Below, piece by piece: positions 3,001 through 64,000 of a stretch of DNA of 64,000 bases. The stretch lies in assembly GCA_030765185.1 (NCBI GenBank), contig JAVCDE010000024.1, positions 251,538-315,537 on the forward strand. The letters run 5' to 3'. This DNA comes from Candidatus Aceula meridiana. GTDB lineage: Bacteria > Omnitrophota > Gorgyraeia > Zapsychrales > Aceulaceae. The translations under genes were made by a program, and so were the position numbers. Under the pieces are notes generated by a model. It had not been told where the DNA came from. It saw only the letters and a list, made by a program, of their open reading frames with translations, and searched no databases. Positions within the stretch are counted from its first letter, which is position 1. Every line of letters begins with the position of its first letter.

Positions 3001-5352
3001 GTGGTGTATCCCTTTATGAAAATAAACTTCTCCAGTTTTAATATCCACAATTGCCTTAATCCCCGAATAATTACTAATTTGATCTTCTTTATATTTTCTA
3101 GCTATATCAGCAGGAACTTTTAGCGGTACTCTTAGTTGTGGTAGATTATAAGAATTGAGCTTATCTGAAAATTTCTCCTCGATGCCTTCTATGGCAGGAG
3201 AGCTTACCCTGACAAGATTTTTGTTTGTTTGAGCATACGGGACAAGGCTATATTCATAATCCCTATTTTCATCCTCTAAAATGATTTTAACCGGTATCTC
3301 CGTAAGGGGTTTTGCGTTAATCTTAATTTCTTGATTTGTTTTTCTAACCGTAGAAACAAACAGTGCGATTTCTTCAACACCTTTTTCAGGGTCATGTTCA
3401 ATATTCTTTGGTTTAATACGAATATCGGCAACGCCTAAATTTCTCATCTCATCAAAAATTTTCTCATAAAATTTAATAACTTCGCGCCCTTTGTCCGTAT
3501 TTGGAAATGTCATTTCAAAATTAAAAGTTCCATCAAGGGCTAAATTTTTATTAAACAAATTTAGCCAAATAGCAATAGGATCCGGATCGTATTGCGCAAC
3601 AAACATTGACATAATCAAATCCATCTTAATAGGGTTACCCTTATCATCAAGGAATTTTACTGTCTTAATGTCCTCTTTTTTAAAAACAAAAGGTTTTTCA
3701 GGTCTTAAATAATCATCTACATTTTTGCCCGGATGCATCACTAAAAATCTTGCACGCCCATCAAGAGTCATTGTCTGGGAATTAATATTATTAAGATCTG
3801 CCCCAAAAACTTCAACAGCCTCTGGTCCAAATGTCTTTTTGCTTCTTACTCTTCGAATAGAACCTATATCTTCATGTCGAGAGCTTATCTCCTGTCTATA
3901 CTCATCCAAACTTTTATTTCCATACTGTTCCAAAATTTCTATCAATGTCATCCCCGCTCCACACCCTGCGTCTAAAACACGCAAAGGTCTACCGCGCTCA
4001 ATGCGGTGAGTTTCGCTAGAAAATCTTTTTAAAAATAGAGCTAAGGGATCTCTAGCTTGTGCTTTCTTAAACCTAAGATCAGCTTGATTGAGCCACCAAT
4101 CATAATTTTTTATTCCACGAAATGCCGTATATTCCCTCTGGCGCGACAACAAGTACTTCTGACTTTTTTGTAACGGTTTAGTTTCCAGAGTACTTGAAAC
4201 CTGACGTAATTTCGCAGGAGAACAGGCGCTCGTTACCTCGCCGATATCTCCAGTTGGCCGAATTATATCTTCTGTTTCGCCTAGCGAAAATCCACCTGAG
4301 AAATATTTGCGCGGAACATTACGCTGTTCGTACTGATCGTATTCAACTTTAACAAAATCACACACACCTTTTTTGAATGCATCAAGATATTGATTATAAA
4401 TTTTTTCTCCAGCCTCTTTATCTTCACCATCTACACCAGCAATCTTGGCCTTGTTGCTGTATTTCTGATTTAAAATAGAATTTTTAAGAGTATTTTTAAA
4501 CCATGTTGCCAGAATCAAAGAATTATAAATTTGACGAAGATTCGCAAAATTTTTGCCGTTGTTGACTTCCCTCTCAATTTGAGGCAAAACAATCTCTCGG
4601 ACAATCTTAGAAGATAAATTACTAACCTCTTTTGTTTCTTTAGCTTTATCTAATTTTGCTCCTATCTTTTGATTATCCAAATTATTCTCAAGAGACAAAT
4701 AATCTTCCTCCAGCATAACCTTAAGATAGCTGCTAACAACAAAAGCATGAGGTCCATTTTCATAAACAACAGCCTTTTGCGGCACAATCCAAACCTTATT
4801 AAAGGTATTAACGGGTATCTGCGTTGTTCCGTATTTCTCAAAAGCTTCTTTGTAAATTCGATCCCAAAATCTCTTGCCCAATTCATCTTCTGGGTAAATA
4901 AGCGACGCTGTAATTTGTTTTAAAATATAGTCTTGAGCCAAAAGGTCTTGGCCCATTTCTGTTTGACCAAAGGCATCTGGGACAATGCGGTCTTCTTCGT
5001 AGGGAGAAAGGTTGACCCAAAGCTCTTGCTTTGGAATCGTTATAGATGCCAAGAAATATTTGATGAGTTTTTCACTCTCTTTTTTAAACTCTTGATCGCT
5101 TAAAGAGGTGTCTCCAATATCCATAATAAAATCAAGCTTAAAAGGATTTTTAGGATCAACTCGTACGCCTCGAAGCAAAACAGGTGAAAAGCTTGGCGTA
5201 AGCGTGATCATAGCCCCAGGCGCAGGCAAAAAGCTTAAAGATTGCGCAAAAGAAGCCGAAGGCATAATCATATTGGCTAAGAATGCAAACATCACAAACC
5301 AGCTAAATAATTTATGATAACGTTTTGTTTTAATATATTTATACATATACAT
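1..5352 (-). CDS. Very large secreted protein (>1780 aa, 3' end beyond window start) with an internal class-I SAM-dependent methyltransferase-like domain; function unknown
   Basis: My own minus-strand translation runs from the ATG at 5352 to position 1 with no stop codon seen; the supplied track lists only short plus-strand ORFs here. N-terminus MYMYKYIKTKRYHKLFSWFVMFAFLANMIMPSASFA reads as a Sec signal peptide. Motif I VLDAGCGAGMTLIE followed by VFGADLN is typical of Rossmann-fold methyltransferases. K/E/D-rich composition matches neighbouring genes. Confidence 0.6.
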   Translation of the reverse strand, partial: MYMYKYIKTKRYHKLFSWFVMFAFLANMIMPSASFAQSLSFLPAPGAMITLTPSFSPVLLRGVRVDPKNPFKLDFIMDIGDTSLSDQEFKKESEKLIKYFLASITIPKQELWVNLSPYEEDRIVPDAFGQTEMGQDLLAQDYILKQITASLIYPEDELGKRFWDRIYKEAFEKYGTTQIPVNTFNKVWIVPQKAVVYENGPHAFVVSSYLKVMLEEDYLSLENNLDNQKIGAKLDKAKETKEVSNLSSKIVREIVLPQIEREVNNGKNFANLRQIYNSLILATWFKNTLKNSILNQKYSNKAKIAGVDGEDKEAGEKIYNQYLDAFKKGVCDFVKVEYDQYEQRNVPRKYFSGGFSLGETEDIIRPTGDIGEVTSACSPAKLRQVSSTLETKPLQKSQKYLLSRQREYTAFRGIKNYDWWLNQADLRFKKAQARDPLALFLKRFSSETHRIERGRPLRVLDAGCGAGMTLIEILEQYGNKSLDEYRQEISSRHEDIGSIRRVRSKKTFGPEAVEVFGADLNNINSQTMTLDGRARFLVMHPGKNVDDYLRPEKPFVFKKEDIKTVKFLDDKGNPIKMDLIMSMFVAQYDPDPIAIWLNLFNKNLALDGTFNFEMTFPNTDKGREVIKFYEKIFDEMRNLGVADIRIKPKNIEHDPEKGVEEIALFVSTVRKTNQEIKINAKPLTEIPVKIILEDENRDYEYSLVPYAQTNKNLVRVSSPAIEGIEEKFSDKLNSYNLPQLRVPLKVPADIARKYKEDQISNYSGIKAIVDIKTGEVYFHKGIHHSDAVQKKFGKTTGDHHGYQLQVMKLEGQKDFFVVDIQANSQLMYKQNPTEEEVLKASQLLLDAIDLESEIKDPAEIKIHPTLAKRIKGGMKKLKTYDLNQVLYTEYMKDPDYQKELVEQLKTLDFNEQGRVAENNDRANAIGYRFLVQHIWEALEYDEEKVNLFLKVFKGEKDLEIDIESVNKILNYFKDLRKDINVIVSVETDIGKVLWKGGDPSVVSQIRHFLSGSTVVSFEQFLAFAKDDPGGLFPLFVEIASSKYGEFVSDKDGLIGHNRKKSGDKKIGTIKIRHLGENTIYFEFNDKDYLLTIEKRFGSMGANVMVTEVSQSGEKGEGMITRALWEEIAPLLKNVILAKNAKNIGLWSNIQSGEIPFGRYIPVSAQEYTDEVYGRISEQSQVFEISSGRNAPAIKTLVQSKDQGEKLKRLLENKNRYIIIEGKKDQPQGVFDFSETTLGEQGYTYTSTDLDIFNSNLQIDVVSDLIERAKNASEKKDIVYVDAGVLNPEALNEIARQIPSEITNIKLIGVGDIFDPNWVFADPRITFYFADFRQLFKLLEEDGLKVDVLAGHMGFRHVASAENLANYLIKFKEYLSDDAEIVFNYPIKMEQSGPKSSQFLQSEEMLNDFNIETVFLKLPAHTLGPVVPNDAYKLTPKKSSSNMGENYWTVEQFKQLADVTASRYPVLNDYDWNQCQRASDDIMRSYRENTELMTNHDFKKMDFYIPEDTQNIVEGMKTANHVVVVIDGWYIVDTQLRQFRKRSNLAQGDEFFEKFIYTWDEYFNNVPAFTSETVDFNSKIKTVSSTVTKEQVEKMNEFFKGVRPGHFRNAVVFYDSPADFAQALTESHPTLFGEQISIDLNDPYWSHNFDKEISERQKQVESNNQVFTPITVKGEIKDYKSLGDFLRSQVQANYAKIQFILVLDSKESFDTYKESLKYGYSGAPGTDQRKASQFIKELVGPNGFFDFSDDKELSSSPGGIDLGADTLDIDIQSEGHGFEFNLDAT

Positions 5353-9035: not shown

Positions 9036-9815
9036 TCACTGAATCCATTGCATGGCCGGCCGCCTTAAATAGCGTTCGGTAAAAACATTATCTTCTATGC
9101 CGACATCATAGCGAACATTTGTAAATTCCATAACTGTTTGTCCTCCGCGTGCAACATCGACAGAGCGAGACTTAACAACCGTTGGATGGCCATCAATATC
9201 TTTTACGTCTAGCGCCTCTATGGTGCGCATAAGATTACCATCTGCATCATAATACTCGGCCTTCATAGGCATAAAATTTCCTTTATCAATCAAAACAATA
9301 TAATAAGAAAATTCAAGACCCTTCGTATCTTTAGGCATATTTTTAATCTTGTAAGAGTTTTCCTCTTCGCCTAAAAGCTCATGTGTGTCAGCTTCGGTGC
9401 CTCGCCCGGAAACATCTTCGTAAACAAAATGCGACCCTACAAAGCTTGAACGTTTATCACTAGCGGCGATGCGGCGGACCAAATCTAAAGCCGGCAAATA
9501 AAGCCAACGGTCATCATCTTTTCCAATGTTTTTCCAAACCATATAGACCATTTTTTCAACATCCGTTGGCTTCTTAAAATATACATAAAACTTTTGCTCT
9601 GCCCCTTCTTTGACTGTCTTTCGCAAAATACGGAATTCGCGATTTCTTTCTCTTCCCTGAGAGTCTGTAATCGTCATCTTAGCGTCTGAAATTCCGTCCT
9701 TACCTGCATAATAAGAAACCATATTTGCCTTTGAAACAATCTCGTCTGCGGTTTGAGCAAAAGCAGAACCAGCCATTAAAAATAAAACGCCAGCAAGGAT
9801 TAATATTCTTTTCAT
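9036..9815 (-). CDS. LolA-like periplasmic protein (outer-membrane lipoprotein-sorting family, DUF1329-like), MMPL accessory
   Basis: Signal peptide MKRILILAGVLFLMAGSAFA; 259 aa. A 1-nt start/stop overlap with the upstream MMPL gene indicates translational coupling. Confidence 0.5.
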   Translation of the reverse strand: MKRILILAGVLFLMAGSAFAQTADEIVSKANMVSYYAGKDGISDAKMTITDSQGRERNREFRILRKTVKEGAEQKFYVYFKKPTDVEKMVYMVWKNIGKDDDRWLYLPALDLVRRIAASDKRSSFVGSHFVYEDVSGRGTEADTHELLGEEENSYKIKNMPKDTKGLEFSYYIVLIDKGNFMPMKAEYYDADGNLMRTIEALDVKDIDGHPTVVKSRSVDVARGGQTVMEFTNVRYDVGIEDNVFTERYLRRPAMQWIQ

Positions 9816-23554: not shown

Positions 23555-25372
23555 TTAATCAGTATAGATAACGGATTTTCGTCCTGCAATGCGCTCGGCA
23601 TCACCCAAAGCCGCTTTAATGTCAAAAGACGGCTGCATACCCTCTTCTTGCTTTTTCATAAGCTTCTCATACAAGGGTTTAAAATTCTTAATTGTTGTTA
23701 AAATAGGATTCGGTGATGTTTGCCCAAGGCCGCATCGGCTTGCTTTTTTAATCGTGCCGCCTAAATCTTCAAGATAGGCAAGGTCTGCAATCTCGCCACG
23801 CCCAGCTAAAATATAACCTAAGCGTTCTTTCATAAGAACATTTCCTGCACGGCAAGGCGTGCAATAACCGCAGGACTCTTCAACAAAGAATTCCATATAC
23901 TCTTCGACAACTTTTAGCAAATCACTTTTCGTATCAAAAACAACCATAGACCCACCAGTTGCCAAATCACTAAAACAAATGCTGCGTGAAAACTCGCTAG
24001 GATTAATAAACTGGCCTGATGGGCCACCAACTAAAACAGCCTGAGTATTTTCCGCTCCAGCATCTTTTAAAATATCTTGAATTTTAGCACCGAAAGGATA
24101 TTCATAAATTCCAGGATTCTTGCAGGCACCGGATATGCTTAAAACCTTTGTGCCAGCGCTATCTACTGAGCCAATATCTGAGAACCAATCTGCCCCCTTC
24201 TCTAGTATACGTGTGACAGAGCAAAAAGTTTCAACATTGTTAACGCTTGTTGGCTTGGCTAAATATCCTCTTTGTGCTGGAAACGGCGGGCGGGTCTTAG
24301 GATCACCGCGCAAACCTTCACAAGAACTAATCAAGGCGCTTTCTTCCCCACAAATATAAGCTCCAGCTCCCATTTGAATACGGATATCAAAATCAAAACC
24401 GTCTTTGCCGCAAACTTTTTTTCCAAGAAACGAAGCATCTCTTCTTTCTTTAAGTTTTTTTTCTAAGAAAGTGCGTAGATATGCATATTCACCGCGAAGG
24501 TACAATACGCCTTCTGTTGCGCCAATGGCATAGCCTGCAATGGTCATTCCTTCGAAAACTAAATCAAATTTTTCTGTTAAAAGAACCCTGTCTTTAAATG
24601 TTCCGGGTTCTCCCTCGTCAGCATTACAAATAATATATTTTTGATCGCCTTGAGCTGCACGAGTAAATTGCCACTTTAAACCTGTCGGGAAACCTGCGCC
24701 CCCGCGTCCGCGAAGATTTGAAATCTTAACCATATCGACAACTTCTTCAGGACTTAACGTAATAGCTTTTTTAAGGCCGGTGCCGGATTCATTATCCGCA
24801 AAAATAACATCGCCTTTTTTAATAATATTGTTATTAACCGCAGATCCAACAAGGCTATCGGCGTTATTGCCATCTCCCAGCCCTAAAGAAATCTTTGAAG
24901 GGTCGGTATCTTTTTGAAGGCCAGCAACAATAGCTTTAACTTTTTCAACGGTAAGACTTGGCGCAACAACTTGATTTAAAAGAGCTGCCGGTGCTTGATC
25001 ACACATACCAATACAAGGTGTGTTTTCTAAGGTAATTTTTCCATCAGAAGTGGTCTGTCCAACTTCGATTCCTAATTCTTTTTCAAAGGCCTTAGCAATC
25101 TCGTCAGCACCTTTCATTTTATCAACGCTATCATTGCATAAACGGATAGCGACTTTTCCTTTAGGTCTTTTGGAAAGAAATGCATAAAAAGAAATAACGC
25201 TTTCGACTTCGACGCGGTGACAACCAATTTCTTCAGCAATAAGATTCATGGCATCAGAGCTGACGCATCCAACGCTCTCTTGAATCGCCTCAACAATATC
25301 CATAAGTCGTGTGCGGTCTTTGTTGTTGGCTTCACAAACTTCTTTGATGATTTTAGAAATGTTTTCGCTCAT
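23555..25372 (-). CDS. hoxF: NAD(H)-binding diaphorase subunit HoxF (NuoE-like plus NuoF-like fusion)
   Basis: GRGGAGFPTGLKW FMN/NADH motif; ESCGYCTPCR 4Fe-4S; N-terminal thioredoxin-like 2Fe-2S module (CNDS...CIGMCDQAP). Confidence 0.9.
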   Translation of the reverse strand: MSENISKIIKEVCEANNKDRTRLMDIVEAIQESVGCVSSDAMNLIAEEIGCHRVEVESVISFYAFLSKRPKGKVAIRLCNDSVDKMKGADEIAKAFEKELGIEVGQTTSDGKITLENTPCIGMCDQAPAALLNQVVAPSLTVEKVKAIVAGLQKDTDPSKISLGLGDGNNADSLVGSAVNNNIIKKGDVIFADNESGTGLKKAITLSPEEVVDMVKISNLRGRGGAGFPTGLKWQFTRAAQGDQKYIICNADEGEPGTFKDRVLLTEKFDLVFEGMTIAGYAIGATEGVLYLRGEYAYLRTFLEKKLKERRDASFLGKKVCGKDGFDFDIRIQMGAGAYICGEESALISSCEGLRGDPKTRPPFPAQRGYLAKPTSVNNVETFCSVTRILEKGADWFSDIGSVDSAGTKVLSISGACKNPGIYEYPFGAKIQDILKDAGAENTQAVLVGGPSGQFINPSEFSRSICFSDLATGGSMVVFDTKSDLLKVVEEYMEFFVEESCGYCTPCRAGNVLMKERLGYILAGRGEIADLAYLEDLGGTIKKASRCGLGQTSPNPILTTIKNFKPLYEKLMKKQEEGMQPSFDIKAALGDAERIAGRKSVIYTD

Positions 25373-25464: not shown

Positions 25465-25513
25465 ATGGATTATAGACTCAAACAAAAAAAGTGTCAAAGA
25501 AAATAAAAAGGCT

Positions 25514-53369: not shown

Positions 53370-54239
53370 TTATTCTAAACAAATAAAAAAACATTCTCCG
53401 GAATTAATGTCAATGGCTAATTCATTGCCCGGATCAAGCTCAAAAGCCTTGTTTATTAATTCTTCGTATTTTTTCATGTCCCCTTTTTTCTTATAAATCT
53501 GGGCAAGCCGCACATAGGGATTAGCAAAAAGTGGGTCTGCTGCAATGGCTTTTTCTAAATACCCTTGAGCTTTATCAAAATTTTGGCCAAGCGCAACCGA
53601 AACAAGCATGTAATAACTTCCTAACCCAAAATTAACAACCGGTGAATCAGGAGCAAGTTTTTGAATAATGTTAAGATGCTTTAAAACCCCTGCTCCGTTG
53701 ATGGCCTTTGAAATCGGGCCACCATAATGAGCAATCATGCCCTTGGCCGCAGCATAAAGTCCGTGCGCTCTTAGGAAATTTGCCTCATCGACATTCTCCC
53801 GGCGCTGATTAATGACTTGGCCGGTTAACCGAATGCTCCCATCAAAATCTTTTTGAATATACCGAATATATGCTAATGTAATCAATGCCGGCGAATAGCT
53901 GGAATTTTCTTTAATAATTTTCTCGAGCATGCCTGCCGCCTCATCTGTTTTATGTTCTCGCCTTAAAATCTCAGCTATTCCCCAGCGCCCCTCAATGCTT
54001 TTGGGGTCAAGTTCTAAAACTTTTTCAAAGACTGCTTTAGAATTTTGTATTTCATAAAAGTTTAAATAGACAAGGCCTAAAACATAAAGATGGTCTATAG
54101 AATTGGGATTTTGGGCAAGTTCTTCTTGCGCTGTCGCAAGGTCAATTAAGTCAGCCTTGTTATGTAAATCTTTCCATTCAAGCGCAAAGCACGAGGTTAC
54201 CAACAAGAAAAAAACTAATAAAATTCCTAAAGTTTTCAT
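53370..54239 (-). CDS. Secreted tetratricopeptide-repeat protein
   Basis: Signal peptide MKTLGILLVFFLLVTSCFA; several TPR units. Confidence 0.75.
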   Translation of the reverse strand: MKTLGILLVFFLLVTSCFALEWKDLHNKADLIDLATAQEELAQNPNSIDHLYVLGLVYLNFYEIQNSKAVFEKVLELDPKSIEGRWGIAEILRREHKTDEAAGMLEKIIKENSSYSPALITLAYIRYIQKDFDGSIRLTGQVINQRRENVDEANFLRAHGLYAAAKGMIAHYGGPISKAINGAGVLKHLNIIQKLAPDSPVVNFGLGSYYMLVSVALGQNFDKAQGYLEKAIAADPLFANPYVRLAQIYKKKGDMKKYEELINKAFELDPGNELAIDINSGECFFICLE

Positions 54240-55537
54240 TCTTGTTCTCTTCTCGGGTCTTTTAAAAACTGAACAATATCTTTTTTAAAGAAGAGCGCCA
54301 AGACCCAGGAAATCCAGACGCGTTTTTTCTTTTCCAAGCGAGGCAGCTTCATTAAATAAACATCACGCCATAAAAGCCATGCCAAAAGGCCTTTAATCTT
54401 AATCCCAAAAATTGACGCAACCCCTTTAAAGCCTCCGATGTTGGCCAGCTGGCCCAAGGATTGAAACGTAAAAAGTTTTTTAGGTTGATTTTTAATCTCA
54501 GCGATAAGATTTTGAGCTAATGCTTTTGCCTCACGTGTAGCGTGTTGAGCCGTCGGAGGATGAGCCCCTCCATTTTGAGTATTGGGAACATACGCGCAAT
54601 CGCCTAAAGCCCATACTCCCTGATGGTCCGGCACCTGAAAATATTTATCGATAATAACGCGGCCTTTTTCTTTAGATAAACCTAAAGCATCAACAACAGG
54701 GCTAATGGTATTGCCAGCTGTCCAAATAATATTGGAAGAATCGACAACCTCATCTGTGCTTAAACCCACCTTGTTATCTGAAAAATCAACAACCTTTGTA
54801 TTCAACTTTATTTCAATTCCTCTTTTTTCAAAAGCTCTTTGGGTATAAACGCCTAAATCCTGATCCATTTCAGGTAAAAGCGTATCCCCCGGATGGATTA
54901 AAACCATGCGCAGCATTTGTTTTGTTAAATTTGGATACCAACAAATAGCGTCTTTGGCCAGGTCATCAACTGCCCCCATGGTTTCTACGCCGGTAAATCC
55001 GCCGCCGGCGACAACAAAAGTTAGAATCTTTTTTTGTAAGCCTTTGTCTTTTATGGAATCAGCTTGCTCAAGGCAGCTAATAATACGGTTTCGAATGGCA
55101 ATGCCATCATGTAAGCTTTTCATCGTGAGAGCGCCTTGCTCTAAATTCTTATTGCCAAAAAAGTTTGGCACAGCCCCTAACGCCAATACCACGTGATCGT
55201 AAGAAATTTCTCTCCTGGAAGATTCAAGGAAAATTTTCCTTACCTTTAGGTCAGCGGAAACAACTTCCGCTTTGATGAATTTTGTATATCTTAAAAGCTT
55301 GCGAAGAGGATTGGCAATGCTGATGCCACCTAAACTGCTCGAGGCAACCTCGTGTAGCATAGGCGTAAAAAGGAAGAAATTCTCTTTGTCGATAAGCGTT
55401 ATCTCGGCGGGCAAACCCTTTTTAACGGCTTTCTCAAGCTCAAGAGCCGTATAGAGCCCTGAAAAGCCGCCGCCTAAAATAACAATTTCTTGTAAGTTTG
55501 ATGAGGGCATTCTTATTTTTGCTTTCGAAGGTGGCAA
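54236..55537 (-). CDS. Type II NADH:quinone oxidoreductase (NDH-2)
   Basis: IVILGGGFSGLYTALEL and VVAGGGFTGVETMGAV dinucleotide folds; C-terminal amphipathic membrane anchor; 433 aa. Confidence 0.85.
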   Translation of the reverse strand: MPPSKAKIRMPSSNLQEIVILGGGFSGLYTALELEKAVKKGLPAEITLIDKENFFLFTPMLHEVASSSLGGISIANPLRKLLRYTKFIKAEVVSADLKVRKIFLESSRREISYDHVVLALGAVPNFFGNKNLEQGALTMKSLHDGIAIRNRIISCLEQADSIKDKGLQKKILTFVVAGGGFTGVETMGAVDDLAKDAICWYPNLTKQMLRMVLIHPGDTLLPEMDQDLGVYTQRAFEKRGIEIKLNTKVVDFSDNKVGLSTDEVVDSSNIIWTAGNTISPVVDALGLSKEKGRVIIDKYFQVPDHQGVWALGDCAYVPNTQNGGAHPPTAQHATREAKALAQNLIAEIKNQPKKLFTFQSLGQLANIGGFKGVASIFGIKIKGLLAWLLWRDVYLMKLPRLEKKKRVWISWVLALFFKKDIVQFLKDPRREQE

Positions 55538-55962
55538 ATAATTCCGTCTAAAGATAGCTTTCCGCTGCCATATTGCAAAAAGACAAACGCGCTTAGGGCA
55601 ATCATTGCCGGATAATAAAAATCATCAGGATGAACTTTGGCAACCGCAACAATCATAATAATGATAACAGGAACAGCTGCGATACGGCTTAAAAACCCAA
55701 TAGCGAGAAGCCCGCCGCAAATAATTTCTGACCACCCGACAACATAGGCCATCATCTTAGGAAATATAATTCCTAGCGTCGATAAATATCCTCCAAAAGC
55801 AGCCAAACCCGGCCCGTCAAACATGCCATATACTTTTCCTAATCCTGCTTTAATGAAAATCCAAGCCACAAAAAGTCTTAATATCCCAATGCTCCATCCG
55901 GTATAAAAACAGCATTTCCCGTTCGTCTCGTGTGTCATTTTCTCCTCCTTCAATGAAGCCAT
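55513..55962 (-). CDS. DoxX-family membrane protein (true start likely the second ATG at about 55938, behind GAAGGAGG)
   Basis: DoxX fold LRLFVAWIFIKAGLGKV...; 4 TM. Confidence 0.8.
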   Translation of the reverse strand: MASLKEEKMTHETNGKCCFYTGWSIGILRLFVAWIFIKAGLGKVYGMFDGPGLAAFGGYLSTLGIIFPKMMAYVVGWSEIICGGLLAIGFLSRIAAVPVIIIMIVAVAKVHPDDFYYPAMIALSAFVFLQYGSGKLSLDGIICHLRKQK

Positions 55963-56037: not shown

Positions 56038-57444
56038 CTATTTAAAACAATACGGATCTTTGTCTTTTAAAATATCTTTTTTGCAACCGCTTGTAACCGC
56101 TAAGCATCCTCCGCACGCATGACGCAAAGAACATCCATCGCATTCTTTGGCCCCTCTGCGATATCTTTTTGCCATCTTTGAATCATAAATTTCTTGAAGG
56201 CTCTGTTTTAAAATATTTCCTATCAAAGACGGAAACTTGCGGCAGGCATGCACTTCTCCGTCGGCGAGAACAGCTACAAAATTAAATGCAGCGCCGCACC
56301 CAAACCCTGTACAGCCACTAAACAGTTTATCATTCTCACGCTCTAAAACAATATTAATTAAATTATCTTTAAAACCTATAATCGGATTTGTCTCTGACGC
56401 TTTGATATATTCCTCTAAAAACCGCTGATAATCTTCTTTTTTCGGAAGCCCTAAACCCTCCCCCTCTCCTGTTTGCGACAAACGATTAAATGTAAAATAT
56501 TCTGCATGCCCTCTAAGTTTCTTAGCTAAAGGTAGAATCTGGCTCATATTCTCTTTTGTCAAAGTCAGCATCACCGCAGAAGAAATCTTTAACTCTCTTA
56601 AAATCTTTAAAAACTTTATCACAGCGCTAAAATTATTTTTTCCTCGAATATAATCGTTATGTTCAGGTAACCCTTCCAGGCTAACCTGGTAATATCCGGG
56701 CTTTTGAATCTCAATAACTTTTTTTAAATCTTCCCTTGAAACAGGATTGCCTAAAATAGATGTTGAAAATCCCTTTTGCTCAGCTCTTTTATAAAGTTTA
56801 AAGAAATGAGGAGATAAAAATGGATTCCCTCCTGAGAAACAGACATGCCCTCGGACGCGGTTTGTCCGAGTAAAGCGCTCGAGGCCATCAAGAACCTTAT
56901 ACCCTTGCTCTAATGTAAAAGGTGAACGTCTTGTTCTGTCGTAGCAATGTTTGCAATGCAAATCGCAAACATTCGTAATATGCCATTGCAGGGTGAATGT
57001 ATCAGAAATAATAAATTTTTGATCAATATTCTTTGTATTCTTAAAAATTCGCGTATTTCGTTTTAGCTTTGGCGTTGGCTTTAAAATGATTCCTTTTTTT
57101 GCGGCTCTTTTTAAGTTTAACTCAAGCGCCTTAACGGAGATGTTTCCTTGTTGCGCGGCTTGTTCTAGAGAAATATTTTCAGCCACCATTTTAAGCGCTA
57201 AAAGTTCTTCTTTTGAAGCCGGCTTAGCTTGAATACTTACGTCTCCTTGTTTTTTCCAAACAAGAAGCCATTCTTTTTGTTTTTTAGGATTCGTTCGTGA
57301 TTGTGAAAATTTCCAATTGGAGAGAAAAATTTCCAAGGTAGGATTGATTTGGAAATTGTTTACCTTTTTAGGCCAGTGCGGCTTTAGAGAGAAAACTTTT
57401 CTTTCAAGCTTTTCAAGTTTTTGAAGTTCTTTAGTAAAATCCAT
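56038..57444 (-). CDS. Radical SAM / SPASM-domain enzyme with a 150-aa N-terminal extension carrying a sigma70-region-4-like HTH (candidate peptide/protein-modifying maturase)
   Basis: HITNVCDLHCKHCY (CxxxCxxC) at about residue 160. C-terminal SPASM Cys array GCTGFGC...HAC...ECDGCSLRHACGGC...SGC...YCF. N-terminal ISLEQAAQQGNISVKALELNLKRAAKKG resembles a region-4/RRE-like helix-turn-helix. Confidence 0.8.
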   Translation of the reverse strand: MDFTKELQKLEKLERKVFSLKPHWPKKVNNFQINPTLEIFLSNWKFSQSRTNPKKQKEWLLVWKKQGDVSIQAKPASKEELLALKMVAENISLEQAAQQGNISVKALELNLKRAAKKGIILKPTPKLKRNTRIFKNTKNIDQKFIISDTFTLQWHITNVCDLHCKHCYDRTRRSPFTLEQGYKVLDGLERFTRTNRVRGHVCFSGGNPFLSPHFFKLYKRAEQKGFSTSILGNPVSREDLKKVIEIQKPGYYQVSLEGLPEHNDYIRGKNNFSAVIKFLKILRELKISSAVMLTLTKENMSQILPLAKKLRGHAEYFTFNRLSQTGEGEGLGLPKKEDYQRFLEEYIKASETNPIIGFKDNLINIVLERENDKLFSGCTGFGCGAAFNFVAVLADGEVHACRKFPSLIGNILKQSLQEIYDSKMAKRYRRGAKECDGCSLRHACGGCLAVTSGCKKDILKDKDPYCFK

Positions 57445-57456
57445 AATATAGTAATA

Positions 57457-57487
57457 AAGGGCCCCCGCTTAATCAGCGGGGGCCCTT
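57457..57487 (-). terminator. Very strong GC hairpin (partial terminator or attenuator) between the Cys/Met-rich protein gene and the rSAM gene
   Basis: AAGGGCCCCCGC / ttaatca / GCGGGGGCCCTT, a 12-bp perfect stem. U-rich sequence follows on both strands. The rSAM start 13 nt downstream has no purine-rich SD. Confidence 0.65.
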
Positions 57488-57512: not shown

Positions 57513-57956
57513 TTATTTTCCGCAGGAGCCTTTACCGCAAGAAGATTTGGCATCTTCATCCATCTCTTCGTCTTCAGTCATTACATCTTCCTCTCCCATC
57601 ATCTCCCCTTCGTCCATATCCTCATCTTCGCCCACCATTCCATTTTCGCCCATATCCTCGTCTTCAGCTGCCATTTCTTCCTCGCCCATGGCTTCATCAT
57701 CTGCCATCATTTCGTCTTGTTCAACCATTTCATCTTCAGCGGCTTCTTGAGCAACAGCTTCTTTTTCAGCAGCTTCCATTTTTGCCCCACAAGAACCTTT
57801 ACCGCAAGAAGCTGTTCCTTCTTCAGCAGCCTTACCACAAGAACCTTTGCCGCAACTCCCCTTACCGGCAAAAACGTCTTTAACAACGCCAAAGCTTGCC
57901 ACAAGGCTTGCGATGCTAATCCCTGTTAAAATCTTTTTAATTTTTCTCTTGTCCAT
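57513..57956 (-). CDS. Sec-secreted 147-aa protein: three SCGKGSCG repeats (6 Cys) flanking a hyper-acidic, periodically Met-rich 90-aa core; candidate rSAM substrate and/or periplasmic Cu/Ag-binding protein
   Basis: Signal peptide MDKRKIKKILTGISIASLVASFGVVKDVFA. Mature protein GKGSCGKGSCGK...ASCGKGSCG...(E/D-x-M heptad-like repeats)...SCGKGSCGK. Strong RBS GAGGAGG and its own consensus promoter. Confidence 0.75.
   Translation of the reverse strand: MDKRKIKKILTGISIASLVASFGVVKDVFAGKGSCGKGSCGKAAEEGTASCGKGSCGAKMEAAEKEAVAQEAAEDEMVEQDEMMADDEAMGEEEMAAEDEDMGENGMVGEDEDMDEGEMMGEEDVMTEDEEMDEDAKSSCGKGSCGK
57520..57860 (-). repeat. Intragenic direct DNA repeats (three copies of the about 25-nt Cys-motif-encoding unit; short-period CATCTTC-type repeats in the acidic core)
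   Basis: ccacaagaacctttaccgcaagaag, ccacaagaacctttgccgcaact and ccgcaggagcctttaccgcaagaag recur at 57786-57810, 57835-57857 and 57520-57545. Confidence 0.6.
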
Positions 57957-57972
57957 CTGTTCCTCCTCATTA

Positions 57973-58039
57973 ATCCCGCGCGCGGGACTTTCTTGGTTTA
58001 TAATAAAGCAATTATACCAACTGCCCTAACGGTGTCAAT
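57973..58039 (-). promoter_or_regulatory. Consensus sigma70 promoter TTGACA-16-TATAAT (minus strand) followed by a 14-bp perfect GC palindrome TCCCGCGCGCGGGA in the 5' UTR of the Cys/Met-rich protein gene
   Basis: -35 at 58034-58039 and -10 at 58012-58017 (reverse complement). Palindrome at 57973-57986, about 20 nt before the RBS. Confidence 0.6.
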
Positions 58040-58066
58040 TGGTTTCACGCCTATCAGGATTATCTC

Positions 58067-61000
58067 TTAAGATTGCTCTTTTTGTAATTTTCGCTCTTTC
58101 ATCCAGCTATATAAAACAGGAACAAGAATTAAATTAGCTGCTGTTGCCGTCAGCAACCCTCCTACGGTCGGCGCGGCCATCGGCTTCATGACCTCTGAGC
58201 CTGTTCCGCTTGAGAACATTACAGGCATTAAGGCAATAATCGTTGTCATGGTTGTCATAAGGGCTGGGCGTACCCTCTGAAGGCCAGCCCTTATGACAGT
58301 CTGGCGTATTTCTTCAATTGTTTTTGGCAATTTTTCCTTAAATAAATTCTCTAAAGTTGAAAGCAACACAACCGCATTATCTGTCGCGACTCCAAAAAGT
58401 GCAATAAAACCAACCCATACGGCTGTAGAAAATCGAAAATTCAAAAGAAACAAAAGAATAACACCGCCGGTAAGCGAAAGCGGCAATACCGCAGTTAAAA
58501 TCCCTAAAATTTTTATGTCTTTAAATGCCATGTACAGCAAAACTAAAATAACCATTAAGGCAAGCGCCATCGAAGGCAACAAGCGCTTTCTCGATTCCAT
58601 CTCAGCTTCAAATTGCCCCGACCAGCTGATAAAGTATCCGGTAGGAATTTTAAGATTCCCTCGGCTTATCTCTTTCTGAACAGTTTCTTGCGCTTTCTTA
58701 ACAAAATCAACCAACCCAATCTGGCTTTGATTCACATTAATAAAAACGCGGCCATAAGGCACCGTGTTTTCCGAAAAAATCATCGACGGTCCGGCAACAG
58801 TTTTAAATTCCGCTAATTGAGCCAAAGGAATTTGCGCAGGCTTAGGCGCGTTACGCCAATGCCAACGGGTCGGCACAAAAATTCTCTTTAAGGCTTCTGG
58901 ATCATCGCGAAGCTCCCGCAGATACCGGACTCTCACCGGATACCGCTCTCGGCCCTCCACCGTGGTTGTGATATTCATCCCCCCGATGCCTGACATAATT
59001 AAGTCCTGAATATCTTGAACATGGATACCATAACGCGCTGCCTGCGGGCGGTCAATCTCAATCTCAAAATAAGGGCGCCCGCCGATGCGCTCAGCGTAAG
59101 GCGAGACCGCACCCTCAACACGGCCAACAATCTGTTCGAGTTGAATACCGATTTTCTCGATTTCTTTTAAATCCGGCCCAAAAACCTTAATCCCGACGGG
59201 CGTCTGAATGCCTGTTGCGAGCATATCAATGCGGTTGCGAATCGGTTGCGTCATAATAGGACTGACACCCGGCATTTTTGTTTTTTGCTGGATTTCATCG
59301 ATAATTTTCTCCCGGGTCATCCCTTTACGCCAATACTTTTTATTTTTAAGGTGGATAATTGTTTCAATCATTGTCACCGGGGCCGGGTCCGTGGCCGTTT
59401 CGGCGCGCCCCAGCTTTCCGACAACACCCTCAACTTCAGGAATTTCATTTTTAATAATGATATCCTGCTTTTGCATCACATCCGCGACTTGCGTCAGAGA
59501 AGCGCCAGGAAGCAAGACAGGCATAAACAACAAATCGCCTTCGTTTAAAGGCGGCATGAATTCTTGTTTCATTAGCACGCTGAAAATAAGCCCCACGGTA
59601 AAGACCGCTAACGCAATAAAAACAATCACGCGTTTATGTATCAAAGCCCAGCCTAGCAAGGGCTTGTATTTTCCATGTAAATATTTAGCGGTTTTATTTT
59701 CTTCAACGGGTTTTAGCTTTCCCTTTAACGCAAAATAGCTTAACGTCGGCAAAAGCGTTAAAGCAATAATCGCGGCGGCCACCATGACAAAAGTTTTGGT
59801 ATAAGCAAGAGGGCTAAAAAGTTTTCCGGCCTGCCCGGTTAAAACAAAAACCGGAATAAAACTAACAATCGTCGTTAAAAGGGCAAAAAGCACAGGCCGG
59901 CCCACTTCGCCTGCCGCGTCACTGCAGATCTTTAACCGGTTTTCTGAAGTCAGGTTTTCTGTCGAGTGCTCGGAGAGCTTGCTGTAGATATTTTCGACCA
60001 TGACGCAACCCGAGTCGACCATAACGCCGATAGCAATCGCGATGCCACCTAAAGACATAATATTGGCATCCACGCCAAATTGCTTCATAAAAATAAACGC
60101 AATCAAAATACCAATCGGCAAAACAGCCGCAATGACAAGGCTCCCCCAAAAATGAAGAAGAAAAACAACAATCACAAAAATTGTAATAATAATTTCCTGA
60201 ATGAGTGCGCTAGAAAGCGTATGAATAGAGCGATGGATAAGTCCTGTGCGGTCATAAAAAGGAACAATCTTCATCCCCTTAGGAAGTCCGACTTCGATTT
60301 CCTGAATTTTTTTCTTTACTCTCTCAATAACTTTTAAAGGATTTTCGCCGTAGCGCATGACCACAACTCCGCCGGTGGCTTCCCTACCTTCTTTATCCAA
60401 AACACCTCTTCGAAAATCCGCCCCTAAGGCTACACGTCCGATGTCTTTAATGGTCACGGGCGTTCCCGCATGCACGCCGATGACAATATCTTCGATATCT
60501 TTAATGCTTTTAATAAAACCGAGGCCGCGTACAACATATTCGACGCTATTTTGCTCAAAGACTTTTGCGCCCACGTCAATATTGGATAACTTGATCGCCT
60601 CCATAACGTGCAAAAGGCTGACGTCATAAGCAAATAATTTGTTCGGGTCGACATCCACCTGATATTGCTTGACGTACCCACCGACGGAAGCCACTTCGGA
60701 GACACCTTCAACGCTCGTCAATTGATAGCGGACATACCAATCTTGGATAGAACGCAATTCTTCCAAGGAATACCCATCGCCCTCAACCGTATACCAGAAA
60801 ATCTGACCCAAGGCCGTCGCATCCGGCCCTAAAGAAACACTGACATCTTTAGGAATATTTTTTTTAGCTAAATCAAGTCGCTCTAAAACACGTGTTCGGG
60901 CCCAGTAATAATCTGTCCCTTCTCGAAAAATCATATTAACCAAGCCAAAGCCAAAACCAGACGACGAACGAACCACTTTGACTTTCGGCGTTCCCATGAG

Positions 61001-61216
61001 CCCTGTTGTCAAAGGATAGATCACTTGGTCCTCAACATCCTGTGGGCTGCGCCCTGGCCAGTCTGCATATACAATAACCTGAAGCTCGCCGATATCCGGA
61101 ATTGCATCAACAGGGGTTTCTTTCATGGAAGAAAACCCTAGAATCATCATCAACACAAAAACCGATAAAACAAGAAATCGATTACGGATACATGTTTCAA
61201 TAATGCGATTAATCAT
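58067..61216 (-). CDS. cusA: Heavy-metal efflux RND pump, CusA/CzcA family
   Basis: 1049 aa, 12 TM, HME-RND architecture. Context csoR-cusC-cusB-cusA. Confidence 0.88.
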   Translation of the reverse strand: MINRIIETCIRNRFLVLSVFVLMMILGFSSMKETPVDAIPDIGELQVIVYADWPGRSPQDVEDQVIYPLTTGLMGTPKVKVVRSSSGFGFGLVNMIFREGTDYYWARTRVLERLDLAKKNIPKDVSVSLGPDATALGQIFWYTVEGDGYSLEELRSIQDWYVRYQLTSVEGVSEVASVGGYVKQYQVDVDPNKLFAYDVSLLHVMEAIKLSNIDVGAKVFEQNSVEYVVRGLGFIKSIKDIEDIVIGVHAGTPVTIKDIGRVALGADFRRGVLDKEGREATGGVVVMRYGENPLKVIERVKKKIQEIEVGLPKGMKIVPFYDRTGLIHRSIHTLSSALIQEIIITIFVIVVFLLHFWGSLVIAAVLPIGILIAFIFMKQFGVDANIMSLGGIAIAIGVMVDSGCVMVENIYSKLSEHSTENLTSENRLKICSDAAGEVGRPVLFALLTTIVSFIPVFVLTGQAGKLFSPLAYTKTFVMVAAAIIALTLLPTLSYFALKGKLKPVEENKTAKYLHGKYKPLLGWALIHKRVIVFIALAVFTVGLIFSVLMKQEFMPPLNEGDLLFMPVLLPGASLTQVADVMQKQDIIIKNEIPEVEGVVGKLGRAETATDPAPVTMIETIIHLKNKKYWRKGMTREKIIDEIQQKTKMPGVSPIMTQPIRNRIDMLATGIQTPVGIKVFGPDLKEIEKIGIQLEQIVGRVEGAVSPYAERIGGRPYFEIEIDRPQAARYGIHVQDIQDLIMSGIGGMNITTTVEGRERYPVRVRYLRELRDDPEALKRIFVPTRWHWRNAPKPAQIPLAQLAEFKTVAGPSMIFSENTVPYGRVFINVNQSQIGLVDFVKKAQETVQKEISRGNLKIPTGYFISWSGQFEAEMESRKRLLPSMALALMVILVLLYMAFKDIKILGILTAVLPLSLTGGVILLFLLNFRFSTAVWVGFIALFGVATDNAVVLLSTLENLFKEKLPKTIEEIRQTVIRAGLQRVRPALMTTMTTIIALMPVMFSSGTGSEVMKPMAAPTVGGLLTATAANLILVPVLYSWMKERKLQKEQS

Positions 61217-61237: not shown

Positions 61238-62410
61238 CTACATTTGCATTCCGGGCATTCCGGGCATCGCGGAAGCCGCTGGTTGCTTTTTCTCATTACC
61301 CAAGGCCCCGGAAAAAGCCGAAGACGCAACCCCGGTAATTTGACTTTGAGAATCAATCAAAAAATTACCTTGCGTGACGACCCGCTCCCCTTCGTTTAAT
61401 CCTTTTAAAACCGGATAAAATTTTCTTGGATTATCCGAATGGTCAATGGCTTCAGGCCCCACAGTAACTTTACGCCCCTCGAATTGCCCATCACCTTTAT
61501 CAACCCATACAATTTGTCGCCGACCGGTATCCAAAAGCGCGCTTTTAGGAATAGATAAAACGTCCATATTCCCGTTATCGTCTTGATACTGGCTCATAAT
61601 TTCAATATCAACATACATTTCCGGTTTTAATTTTTTCTCCGGATTATCGACCAAGGCGCGAAAACGAACAGACCGAGTCTGAGGATCAACCACAGGATTA
61701 AGGGAAACAACTTTTCCGTAAAACTCTTCTCCTGCCAAGCTCAAAGGGCTCACCTTAACATAAGCGCCTTCTTTAACCCAGTTAAGTTCATATTCATAGA
61801 CATCACCATAAATCCACATCTTGTCTCCCGGCAAAACCAAATTGTTTTGAACTTTTTTTGATTTTTGCAGGCCATCAATTTGTTCCTGGCTTAGGCCCAT
61901 CAAAAGAAGCTTGCGCTGCGAAGAGTCCACCAAAGATTTGGCCCTATCCACGATTTCTTCAATGCCGCCGGAAAGAGCTTTTTCGTAAGATTGAACTGAA
62001 GAAATAAATTCATCCTGTGCAACGGCTAACTGCGGGTCATAGGCAACGCGCCCAACAGCCCGAATTTCCTTAAAAAGCTGCCGCTTTTCAATAGGCTCGG
62101 TTTTAACGCCGGCCAACTTTAATTCAGAGGCCTTAAGCGCAACCTGGCTTATGACATTTTCATCCGATGTCTCCATGTTCATGCTTGACTTTATTACCGG
62201 CATTAACGGCATAAAACAAATCGGACACTTCGTATCCCCTTTTTCATAGTTTTCAACCGTCACCTTAACGCTCGGATGCATGCCGCAAGTATAATAAGAT
62301 ATCGGCTCATCAAGACCTTGATGGTTCACATGATTCTGTTGAGCGAATAGTTGCGTTGAAAACATCAACGTAAAAAGAATGACGAGAGCAACCCTTATAA
62401 TCTTTTCCAT
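61238..62410 (-). CDS. cusB: RND membrane-fusion adaptor (CusB-like) with N-terminal YTCGMHP heavy-metal-binding domain and Met-rich C-terminal tail
   Basis: YYTCGMHPSVKV...CPICFMPLMP (HMBD). C-terminal AMPGMPGMQM. Confidence 0.85.
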   Translation of the reverse strand: MEKIIRVALVILFTLMFSTQLFAQQNHVNHQGLDEPISYYTCGMHPSVKVTVENYEKGDTKCPICFMPLMPVIKSSMNMETSDENVISQVALKASELKLAGVKTEPIEKRQLFKEIRAVGRVAYDPQLAVAQDEFISSVQSYEKALSGGIEEIVDRAKSLVDSSQRKLLLMGLSQEQIDGLQKSKKVQNNLVLPGDKMWIYGDVYEYELNWVKEGAYVKVSPLSLAGEEFYGKVVSLNPVVDPQTRSVRFRALVDNPEKKLKPEMYVDIEIMSQYQDDNGNMDVLSIPKSALLDTGRRQIVWVDKGDGQFEGRKVTVGPEAIDHSDNPRKFYPVLKGLNEGERVVTQGNFLIDSQSQITGVASSAFSGALGNEKKQPAASAMPGMPGMQM

Positions 62411-62419
62411 TTCTCCTCC

Positions 62420-63691
62420 TTATAAATCTCTTCCAACCATTTGTTCTAAATAAGCAATTGCTTTTCGATAATCAACAATCGATTTATAATACGCCAAACG
62501 CGTCTGAAGATATGTCCGCTCGGCATCAAGCCAATCAATAAAAGAAATTCCGCTGGTTTCAAACCCTGTCTGTGAACCGTCAAAAGCCTGTTTGGCCTGA
62601 GGCAACAGGGCTGTTTCATATAAAAGGACGACGTCCTTGTAGGCTATAATTTTAAAATAAGCGTCCTTCACTTCAAGTTCAGCTTGATTTTCGACTTGCT
62701 CTTTATTTTTTTGAGCTGATTTTAATTGAGCCTCTTTTTCTTTGACTTGAGCATCTAATTTCCAAAACCATATCGGAACATTAACCGAAACCATAGCTGC
62801 CCAGGCATCCTGTCCGTCATCCATAGAAGTCGTCGTGCCGCTGCCGATTTCGATATATTCTGCCCCGATCGTAAAATTCGGCAAATATGCCATCTTCGAT
62901 AAAGTTTTTTCCTTCTGGGCCTTTTCAAATAAGAAATCAGCTTCGATTAAATCCTGACGGGTTTCTTTTGCATATCCTAACAATTCATCAAGATTATAAG
63001 AGAAGGAAATGTTCTTTAACGATAAAACCTTATTGATTTCTCCGCCTGAGGGGTTGTTGATTAGGGTATTAAGTTTTACGCTTAGACTTTCTCTGTTCTG
63101 CTTTAACAAAAATATCTTCTGAAGAATTTTAGAAAGTTCCACCTGGATCTTAAGAATGTTTTGTTGCGTTCCAAGGTTAGACTCGTATTTCTTCTGAGCC
63201 GAGCCCTCTAAATCTTCCAGGATAGATTTTTCTTCTTCGTTTATTTCGATTGATTTATCTACCCAAAATAAATCATAGTAAGTAGCTTTTACCTGGGCAA
63301 TAATGGCACGTCTTGCTTTTTCATATTCTTGTTCAAGCATCTTGGCCTGCGCGGCCTGGGCCTTTCCCTTTAAGCTTAATTTTCCCGGGAAAGGAATCTT
63401 TTGAGAAACATTGAATTTTTGCTCCTGCGGCCCCACGCGGGTTTGCACTTCTTCGCCAAAATAGGTATAACCGACCATCGGATCGTCTAAAGCGCTAATG
63501 CTTTGCGTTTTGTATTGTTCGGCCTTCCACTTCTGATAAACCTGCTGGATTTGTGGATTGTTTTCTAAGGCCTCCTGAACAAAGCGGTCAAGAATGCTTT
63601 CTCCTTTATCCTGGCCAAAAGAAAAACAAGGCAAAAAAATTAAGCTTAGAATTGCTATAAAAATAAATTTAAAATAACGATTGGGATTCAT
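62420..63691 (-). CDS. cusC: Outer-membrane efflux channel (TolC/CusC family)
   Basis: Signal peptide; two OEP repeats; 423 aa. Confidence 0.85.
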   Translation of the reverse strand: MNPNRYFKFIFIAILSLIFLPCFSFGQDKGESILDRFVQEALENNPQIQQVYQKWKAEQYKTQSISALDDPMVGYTYFGEEVQTRVGPQEQKFNVSQKIPFPGKLSLKGKAQAAQAKMLEQEYEKARRAIIAQVKATYYDLFWVDKSIEINEEEKSILEDLEGSAQKKYESNLGTQQNILKIQVELSKILQKIFLLKQNRESLSVKLNTLINNPSGGEINKVLSLKNISFSYNLDELLGYAKETRQDLIEADFLFEKAQKEKTLSKMAYLPNFTIGAEYIEIGSGTTTSMDDGQDAWAAMVSVNVPIWFWKLDAQVKEKEAQLKSAQKNKEQVENQAELEVKDAYFKIIAYKDVVLLYETALLPQAKQAFDGSQTGFETSGISFIDWLDAERTYLQTRLAYYKSIVDYRKAIAYLEQMVGRDL

Positions 63692-63692
63692 T

Positions 63693-63971
63693 TTAACCCC
63701 CGCAATGTTTATTTAAAATGTTGATAACTTCGTTAATTTTCTCCTGCTTTTCAACTTGAGACTGGCCTTTAAGCGTATCAGCAACACAACTTTCTAAATG
63801 TTTTTGAAGAATCTTTTCCTTAACCCTACTGATTGCTTTTGTAACCGAACGAATTTGAATTAGTACGTCAATGCAATAGCGCCCTTCTTCAATCATTCCT
63901 TGGATACCGCGAACTTGTCCCTCAATTCTTTTAAGAGCATTAATCTGTTCTTTATGACTTGAATGTTTCAT
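63693..63971 (-). CDS. csoR: CsoR/RcnR-family metal-sensing repressor with a Cu(I)-type C-H-C ligand set
   Basis: KRIEGQVRGIQGMIEEGRYCIDVLIQ...KHLESC: Cys about 31 and His-x3-Cys as in CsoR; 92 aa. Confidence 0.85.
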   Translation of the reverse strand: MKHSSHKEQINALKRIEGQVRGIQGMIEEGRYCIDVLIQIRSVTKAISRVKEKILQKHLESCVADTLKGQSQVEKQEKINEVINILNKHCGG

Positions 63972-64000
63972 AGCGTTCTCCTTTTCAATGCAAGGATACC

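Follow-up and report, generated by a model that had tools for sequence, protein, structure and literature searches.

We analyzed a stretch of DNA of 64,000 nucleotides (nt), here called the window. It carries a copper-efflux operon headed by a regulator gene and, downstream of it on the same strand, a string of genes that begins with a short precursor gene. The genes of the locus are the following.

63693-63971, minus strand: csoR, Cu(I)-sensor type, heading csoR-cusCBA, about 5.7-6 kb upstream of the sbtA promoter
62420-63691, minus strand: cusC-like gene
61238-62410, minus strand: cusB-like gene
58067-61216, minus strand: cusA
57513-57956, minus strand: sbtA, encoding a RiPP precursor of 147 aa (TIGR04081, 34.2 bits versus a cut-off of 30.5)
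56038-57444, minus strand: sbtM, encoding a thio(seleno)oxazole radical SAM/SPASM maturase (TIGR04082, 668.6 bits versus a cut-off of 350)
55513-55962, minus strand: gene for a membrane protein of the DoxX family within the string that begins with sbtA; it resembles HvfX at a score under the curated cut-off
54236-55537, minus strand: gene for an NDH-2-like flavoprotein (oxidoreductase)
53370-54239, minus strand: gene for a TPR protein

The product of the gene at 57513-57956 had been described, in a sequence-only reading of this DNA, as a Cys/Met-rich protein. Its composition bears this out: in SbtA, a signal peptide of the Sec type is combined with three cysteine pairs (CGKGSCG) and a middle part rich in Met, Asp and Glu. 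The identity of the protein can be stated more fully. Since the TIGR04081 and TIGR04082 matches both exceed their cut-offs and the two genes adjoin (same strand, 68 nt between them), the gene behind the promoter described below is, by its profile match and gene context, that of an SbtA RiPP precursor encoded beside its maturase SbtM. A protein identical to SbtM carries this name in a protein database, where it comes from a 'Candidatus Aceula meridiana' (Omnitrophota) metagenome-assembled genome (MAG).

Work by Lewis in 2021 on SbtM chemistry reportedly found that Cys is converted to thiooxazole and that the product binds copper. The SbtA product of the window is likely to bind copper and is a putative periplasmic chelator. 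In passages of PMC11626156, which cite Lewis 2021 as ref. 30, SbtM-made thiooxazole peptides are treated alongside copper-binding bufferins. The same passages present bufferins as MNIO-made thiooxazole peptides that are Sec-exported copper chelators, with clusters that also contain DoxX. The window resembles both the SbtA/SbtM system and the bufferins in that a precursor with a Sec signal and Cys motifs lies beside SbtM, DoxX and copper-efflux genes. It differs from the SbtA/SbtM system in its unusually long precursor (147 aa), which has an acidic Met-rich insert and no selenocysteine. The SbtM of this clade differs from TIGR04082 in that it begins at model position 44.

For comparison, we used the close relative represented by loci L003 and L002, whose SbtM is 83% identical to that of the window; all other SbtM matches were either 100% identical (the same protein) or at most 57% identical. 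The SbtA of L003 is 73% identical to that of the window, and both L002 and L003 keep the gene order of the sbtA-sbtM-DoxX string. Metagenome scans with SbtA as the query yielded no further close relatives, and a protein search with SbtA gave a single match (40% identity). With one close relative only, all statements on structure conservation below are based on two sequences. In L003, csoR-cusCBA is deleted, leaving a remnant of the csoR promoter and, of cusA, the 33 final codons. L003 keeps the gene that precedes csoR, the terminator of that gene and the csoR promoter, and the remnant of the csoR operator has decayed from GGGGGG to GGGGTGG.

The promoter and the leader of sbtA lie on the minus strand, in the 110 nt that separate the cusA stop codon (58067) from the sbtA start codon (57956).

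58038-58033, minus strand: -35 hexamer TTGACA, with an identical copy in L003
between the -35 and -10 hexamers, minus strand: spacer of 16 nt, CCGTTAGGGCAGTTGG
58019-58018 (TG) and 58016-58011 (TATAAT), minus strand: extended -10 element TGgTATAAT, the same in L003
58004, minus strand: predicted transcription start, an A 7 nt past the -10 hexamer, placed by promoter geometry
57987-57974, minus strand: perfect 14-nt palindrome TCCCGCGCGCGGGA in the 5' leader, read from the sequence
57972-57989, minus strand: predicted leader RNA stem-loop AGUCCCG-CGCG-CGGGAUU (-9.4 kcal/mol, z -2.5 on 23 nt)
57968-57962, minus strand: Shine-Dalgarno (SD) sequence GAGGAGG, 5 nt before the ATG at 57956; L003 has AAGGAGG at the same place

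In the consensus scan, the promoter, which lies approximately 48 nt 5' of the sbtA start codon, matched 12 of 12 hexamer positions, with TG before the -10 hexamer and a spacer of 16 nt. It had been called rare and identical to the sigma-70 consensus. Its rarity is borne out, with two copies of TTGACA-N15-19-TATAAT in the 64-kb window versus 0.07 expected. The optimal sigma-70 spacer is 17 nt, so with 16 nt the identity to the consensus is limited to the two hexamers and the TG. The second perfect-consensus copy is located at 25469-25497 on the minus strand, 5' of a NuoE/NuoF-like gene, and the two copies fit the idea of a canonical consensus at heavily expressed operons of this organism. The sbtA promoter is like extended -10 sigma-70 promoters in TTGACA, TG, TATAAT and conservation in the orthologue; it deviates in its spacer (16 versus 17 nt), and the promoter rules are assumed for the uncultured Omnitrophota host.

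The promoter of L003, at 2972-2999, likewise shows 12 of 12 hexamer positions, a 16-nt spacer and TG. Thirteen of the 16 spacer positions are the same in the two loci, and the predicted start sits inside a block, ATTATAAA, that is kept in L003. The stretch from the cusA stop codon to the -35 hexamer is visibly diverged. Approximately 20 A/U-rich bases separate TATAAT from the leader palindrome. An inverted repeat across the promoter (ACCAATTG...CAGTTGGT) was without conservation in L003 and was taken as chance. On these sequence comparisons, the dedicated sbtA promoter is real, rare and conserved. Because csoR-cusCBA is gone in L003 and the promoter is nevertheless kept at 12 of 12 positions, the comparison supports a promoter of sbtA's own that is under selection and independent of cusCBA, in agreement with the earlier proposal that sbtA is transcribed apart from the cus operon.

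The consensus scan detected no terminator-like site between the cusA stop codon and the sbtA promoter. Any copper input to sbtA would thus come as read-through from csoR-cusCBA, and not through the palindrome. The cusCBA transcription that CsoR controls probably continues into sbtA and would add a copper-inducible part to its expression, with no operator at sbtA itself.

The 14-bp GC palindrome reported for the 5' untranslated region of sbtA was confirmed at 57987-57974. Twelve of its 14 letters are G or C, at a genome GC content of 40%, and it is the GC-richest palindrome of the window. It is present in a single copy there, the next-best matches carrying 3 mismatches. As a class, such palindromes are only mildly unusual: perfect ones of at least 14 nt occur eight times in the window versus 6.6 expected; two contain at least 10 G/C versus 0.38 expected, and 35% of simulations contained at least one of this kind. 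In the leader RNA, the palindrome is predicted to form a 7-bp stem with a 4-nt CGCG loop, which ends 3 nt before the SD sequence and leaves it unsequestered in the predicted leader fold. For the full 48-nt leader, z was -1.47, and 19 of 200 shuffles folded as well. No Rfam family came near its gathering score in the leader; the subthreshold matches were all on the hairpin 3' of sbtA described below. We also considered terminator functions of the palindrome. As an intrinsic terminator of the minus strand, it lacks a U-tract and would stop the transcripts of its own promoter. On the plus strand, it has a terminator-like score, but no gene of that strand leads into it.

The leader of L003 contains no palindrome. 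It contains a longer hairpin, CCUGAUGCAC-UUC-GUGCAUGGGG (-12.6 kcal/mol, z -2.8), and 17 nt separate the end of the hairpin from the start codon in L003 and the window alike. At its base, the stem reads AAUCC/GGGUU in L003 versus AGUCC/GGAUU in the window, with one-sided changes that keep the pairing. The apical CGCGCG is replaced in L003 by another self-complementary sequence of 18 nt, and the loop sequence is not conserved. Within the sbtA upstream region, conservation between window and L003 is lowest in the leader. Thus, the two sequences agree in the structure and its position but differ in sequence and half-site spacing, which is the behavior of an RNA stem-loop and not of a protein-binding dyad. 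Other sbtA loci from Omnitrophota have differing leaders with no common architecture.

In 13 of 80 distant sbtM loci (MAGs mainly of Desulfobacterota, Nitrospirota and related), we observed a different leader motif, GUUUUUCCUGUCCUGGGAGGAAAAAC, located approximately 27-35 nt upstream of sbtA. Its 9-bp stem was evaluated by counting the pairing directly on the named structure: 84.6% of cells pair, and five pairs change on both sides, a number of pairs reached by 19 of 500 shuffles. RNAalifold on a MAFFT alignment of the motif did not recover the long stem, with register shifts in the alignment. No Rfam family covers the motif. The covariance model built from it (R1) matched the 13 training loci and, weakly, one further locus, and it found nothing in the window or L003; homology of the window hairpin to this motif was rejected on this basis. 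The 13 loci thus show that sbtA leaders can carry conserved elements, of which the element of the window is not one.

The csoR gene that had been placed about 6 kb upstream is indeed there, as a CsoR-family gene at 63693-63971. The nearest solved relatives of its product are 4ADZ and 4M1P, with which the Cys/His/Cys ligand positions align. The csoR promoter extends across the end of the window and was completed with L001, a 639-bp ENA contig that is identical over a 446-nt overlap and adds 193 bases beyond the window end.

63994-64000, minus strand: last 7 nt (GGTATCC) of the promoter/operator of the csoR operon; the remainder, TTGACATAGGGTAGGGGGGTATGGTATCC, is at positions 172-200 of L001

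The csoR promoter in L001 contains the box CATAGGGTAGGGGGGTATGGTAT with a G6-tract, located between the -35 and -10 elements; the csoR box of this locus is CATAGGGTAGGGGGGTATGGTATCC. We compared it with four further csoR genes, whose products are 56-60% identical to this CsoR and which all head csoR-(YHS)-cusCBA operons. All four have the same box in the same place between -35 and -10. In two of them it is TTGACATAGGGT(A/G)GGGGGGTATGGTATAC, and in the other two it is TTGACATACCATAGGGGGGTATGGTATAC, with the perfect inverted repeat ATACCATA-G6-TATGGTAT. The five csoR-cusCBA promoters have in common TTGACA-TA(GGG/CCA)T(A/G)GGGGGGTATGGTAT(A/C)C, and the CsoR box of the clade can be written as (C)ATA-GGGTA/CCATA-GGGGGG-TATGGTAT. 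On a matrix built from these five promoters, their own boxes scored 41-43 bits, the sbtA promoter 2.7 bits and the leader palindrome -14.3 bits. The 18-mer core of the box has no match in the window at up to 3 mismatches. Operators of the CsoR/RcnR family consist of G-tracts flanked by TA-rich inverted repeats with TAC/GTA, and mutation of the dyad abolishes binding (PMC3902906). The G6 box fits this description and is thus the best candidate for the operator of this CsoR clade. Judged by these promoter sequences, CsoR most likely acts only at the G6-tract operator within the csoR-cusCBA promoter.

A weak CsoR box in the sbtA spacer was considered as well, because TAGGG-N5-GGTAT is common to the sbtA and csoR promoters, and was rejected at its matrix score of only 2.7 bits. 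The pattern is unique in the window (0.11 expected), a value to be read with the post hoc choice of the pattern in mind. The likeness of the two promoters is due to the extended -10 element TGGTATA, which both need anyway, and is thus no evidence for a CsoR box.

How the palindrome should be interpreted depends on whether it acts as DNA or as RNA. The sequence-only reading took it for a DNA-level operator at which CsoR represses sbtA at its own promoter, with relief by copper, so that sbtA would be under copper control separately from cusCBA. A Cu-sensor-type csoR is encoded 5.7-6 kb upstream, copper control would make sense for a product that likely binds copper, and the palindrome shares a G/C-rich dyad and CCC...GGG ends with CsoR-family sites, which are G/C-tract pseudopalindromes (PMC3902906). 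Known operators are exemplified by the type 2 site of Streptomyces, ATATACCCCTNAGGGGTATAT (TAC-N9-GTA), and the type 1 site of E. coli RcnR, TACT-G6-N-AGTA. Compared with these, the palindrome has no TAC/GTA dyad and no TA-rich inverted flanks (its flanks are AAAGT and ATTAA), and a continuous 12-bp G/C block with an alternating GCGCGC core takes the place of the G-tracts. It is situated at approximately +17 to +30, downstream of the start and off the -35/-10 region, whereas the box overlaps the promoter in all five csoR cases. A search for a further copy upstream of csoR, beyond the window end, had been proposed as a check; in L001 the palindrome is absent even at 3 mismatches, and the promoter of csoR has the G6-tract box instead. 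It is also absent from the orthologous L003 locus, a result named beforehand as speaking against CsoR binding; there, the half-site spacing is shifted by approximately 8 nt, and the hairpin is kept. Its core, CCCGCGCGCGGG, occurs in none of the 87 fetched loci, and csoR is missing within 10 kb in all 80 distant sbtM loci. As far as sequence can tell, the palindrome is very unlikely to be a binding site of the nearby CsoR, and with it the proposed separate copper control is not upheld. Another dimeric regulator might bind the palindrome as a roadblock past the start and so gate the strong promoter. We regard this as decidedly improbable: no regulator gene is present in or beside the sbtA-sbtM-doxX-oxidoreductase-TPR string in L003, the dyad is kept there only in its outer CC/GG bases and at another spacing, and neither the window nor any of the fetched loci has a second copy of the palindrome. 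These observations are set against a perfect 14-bp dyad directly downstream of a consensus promoter, the likewise conserved promoter spacer, and the consideration that regulation might be expected of so strong a promoter on the gene of a metal chelator.

The palindrome could also be without function, its GC-rich symmetry having arisen by chance or as a by-product of mutation in a leader under little constraint. This is suggested by the chance-level number of perfect palindromes in the window, by the simulations for GC-rich ones, by the leader fold z of only -1.47 and by the weak conservation of the leader. It is made doubtful by the high G/C content of the palindrome and above all by L003, in which an independent and stabler hairpin is found at an equal distance to the start codon and with a similar stem base; two such chance events are unlikely. 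Alternatively, the stem-loop may be a specific regulatory RNA, either bound by a protein or small RNA or switched by a ligand or metal, that controls translation or processing of sbtA. It would then be a functional analogue of the conserved sbtA leader motif of Desulfobacterota and Nitrospirota, and the position of the window hairpin beside the SD sequence would suit such a role. The hairpin is small, its loop differs between window and L003, the SD sequence is free in the predicted fold, and neither the covariance model of the distant motif nor Rfam matched the leader, so we consider specific RNA regulation unlikely. We give a similarly low probability to a variant in which the leader stem-loop, alone or together with the conserved spacer, is a CsoR-independent cis-element of a copper- or redox-responsive factor that gates the RiPP. 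If true, sbtA leaders of different phyla would have evolved their own regulatory hairpins, such as the GUUUUUCCUGUCCUGGGAGGAAAAAC motif, and a control layer over metallophore RiPPs that has not been described would exist. As the best reading, we take the palindrome to form an ordinary stem-loop in the leader RNA, an explanation that involves known element types and no new mechanism.

A second structured element follows the coding region.

57487-57457, minus strand: 13-bp GC hairpin between sbtA and sbtM (-30 kcal/mol, z -5.1)

This hairpin directly follows the sbtA stop codon, and L003 has kept the stem (-31.5 kcal/mol). The start of sbtM is 12 nt past it, with no SD sequence visible. The tail, UUUAUUACUAUAUU, is a weak U-tract that fails the T-run rule, and the consensus scan made no terminator call. 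In lanthipeptide-type RiPP clusters, a hairpin between precursor and modification genes sets the stoichiometry of precursor and maturase. The sbtA hairpin is similarly placed, between the stop codon of the precursor gene and the gene of the maturase, and is conserved in the orthologue. It differs from the lanthipeptide-type hairpins in its weak U-tract and the negative terminator scan, and partial termination at this site would be an inference only. We consider it a candidate attenuator or 3' stability element.

Taken together, the sbtA region is probably a dedicated sigma-70-type promoter followed by the leader stem-loop of a copper-binding RiPP precursor, with the CsoR operator located elsewhere. 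The consensus hexamers and the extended -10 TG would provide strong transcription of sbtA with no need of csoR-cusCBA. The palindrome would be transcribed (approximately +16 to +33) and would fold as the 7-bp stem-loop, with the strong SD sequence 3 nt downstream, so that the leader stem-loop and the stable 3' hairpin would bracket a short precursor mRNA. This mRNA would probably be abundant and long-lived, with limited read-through into sbtM-doxX-oxidoreductase-TPR.

The stability of bacterial mRNAs is governed at the 5' end and in the translation-initiation region, with stem-loops and strong SD sequences among the determinants (PMC3997798). In having a stem-loop beside a strong SD sequence, on a gene for which high expression is expected, the sbtA leader is like the known 5' stabilizers of E. 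coli ompA and papA and of B. subtilis aprE and ermC (PMC3997798). We infer the transcription start, the formation of the hairpin in vivo and its effect on mRNA stability or translation from the predicted features. Classical 5'-terminal mRNA stabilizers sit at the very 5' end, whereas approximately 15 unpaired nt separate the sbtA hairpin from the predicted 5' end. Processing of the read-through transcript from cusA could be a source of a 5' end closer to the hairpin.

For the locus, these results correct both the annotation and the regulatory model: the precursor is of the thiooxazole type and has its own strong promoter, and CsoR most likely acts at the G6-tract box. The CsoR box derived from five operons is usable for regulon prediction in Omnitrophota and related uncultured bacteria. 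RiPP precursor genes typically need far higher expression than the genes of their enzymes. The cassette of promoter, leader and hairpin shows how a high precursor:enzyme ratio may be obtained, and it offers parts for heterologous expression.

A box built on a G6 tract was found between the -35 and -10 elements upstream of csoR. It is common to five csoR-(YHS)-cusCBA operons, the CsoR proteins of which are 56-60% identical. In the window it crosses the end of the stretch and continues on L001, a 639-bp contig that extends beyond it.

Copies of the G6-tract box upstream of csoR
63994-64000, continuing on L001 172-200, minus strand: window copy
L084: copy in another fetched operon locus
L085: copy in another fetched operon locus
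L086: copy in another fetched operon locus
L087: copy in another fetched operon locus

The consensus of the five operons reads TTGACA-TA(GGG/CCA)T(A/G)GGGGGGTATGGTAT(A/C)C, and in two of the five loci the box forms a perfect inverted repeat, ATACCATA-G6-TATGGTAT. The G6-tract box is probably the autoregulatory CsoR operator of the clade. The csoR-cusCBA genes are missing from the closest relative (L003). There, a remnant of the csoR promoter is joined to the final 33 codons of cusA (2826-2946), with its G6 tract degraded to GGGGTGG, and this cusA remnant is followed by an intact sbtA promoter.

In the window, the -35 and extended -10 elements of the sbtA promoter are covered by an inverted repeat, ACCAATTG...CAGTTGGT (58016-58043, minus strand). 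The repeat is not kept in L003 and is probably due to chance. Between the leader hairpin and the Shine-Dalgarno (SD) sequence of sbtA lies an out-of-frame AUG (57968-57970, minus strand), which starts a 14-codon reading frame overlapping the sbtA start. No separate SD stands at a suitable distance for this frame, and the AUG is probably not used.

The only other perfect consensus promoter match within the window, TTGACA-N17-TATAAT (25469-25497, minus strand), lies approximately 95 nt upstream of a NuoE/NuoF-like gene (23555-25372). The 605-aa product combines a 2Fe-2S thioredoxin-like part with a 51-kDa FMN part, and a NuoG-like ferredoxin gene follows.

The precursor SbtA (57513-57956, minus strand) is unusually long at 147 aa. 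Its six Cys residues occur as three CGKGSCG cysteine pairs, and its gene contains no in-frame UGA. The middle of the protein (approximately 75 residues) is acidic, rich in Met, Asp, and Glu, and partly repeated; its length varies when SbtA is compared with the relative's orthologue, which is 73% identical and differs by indels. Between sbtA and sbtM, a very stable 13-bp GC hairpin with a weak U-tract was detected (57457-57487, minus strand; -30 kcal/mol, z -5.1). L003 has the same stem with a different loop (approximately 3491-3517). The start of sbtM lies 12 nt past the hairpin, without a visible SD. SbtM of the window's clade (56038-57444, minus strand) has 468 aa, compared to approximately 520-540 aa in most homologues, and its alignment to the TIGR04082 model begins at model position 44. 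Since the upstream hairpin allows no longer reading frame, the N-terminus is truly shorter.

In 13 distant loci, sbtA is preceded at a distance of approximately 27-35 nt by a conserved leader motif, GUUUUUCCUGUCCUGGGAGGAAAAAC.

Copies of the leader motif
L015: 1754-1796
L016: 9400-9442
L017: 9358-9400
L018: 7742-7784
L021: 7735-7777
L023: 2849-2891
L028: 750-792
L031: 9363-9405
L034: 9367-9409
L035: 2229-2271
L036: 1088-1130
L046: 3060-3102
L050: 9304-9346

The motif is a hairpin with CCUGG in its loop. It corresponds to none of the Rfam families, and covariation across these loci supports it modestly. In another Omnitrophota MAG (L030, approximately 9690-9780), a promoter-like site, TTGACA-15-TGTAAT, precedes a tandem direct repeat in the sbtA leader, GGCAGGTGTTTCACTTTCTGTGA x2, an architecture that differs from that of the window's sbtA leader. 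Several sbtA genes downstream of GUUUUUCCUGUCCUGGGAGGAAAAAC appear to encode selenocysteine, and the motif itself may be an undescribed cis-regulatory element of sbtA genes.
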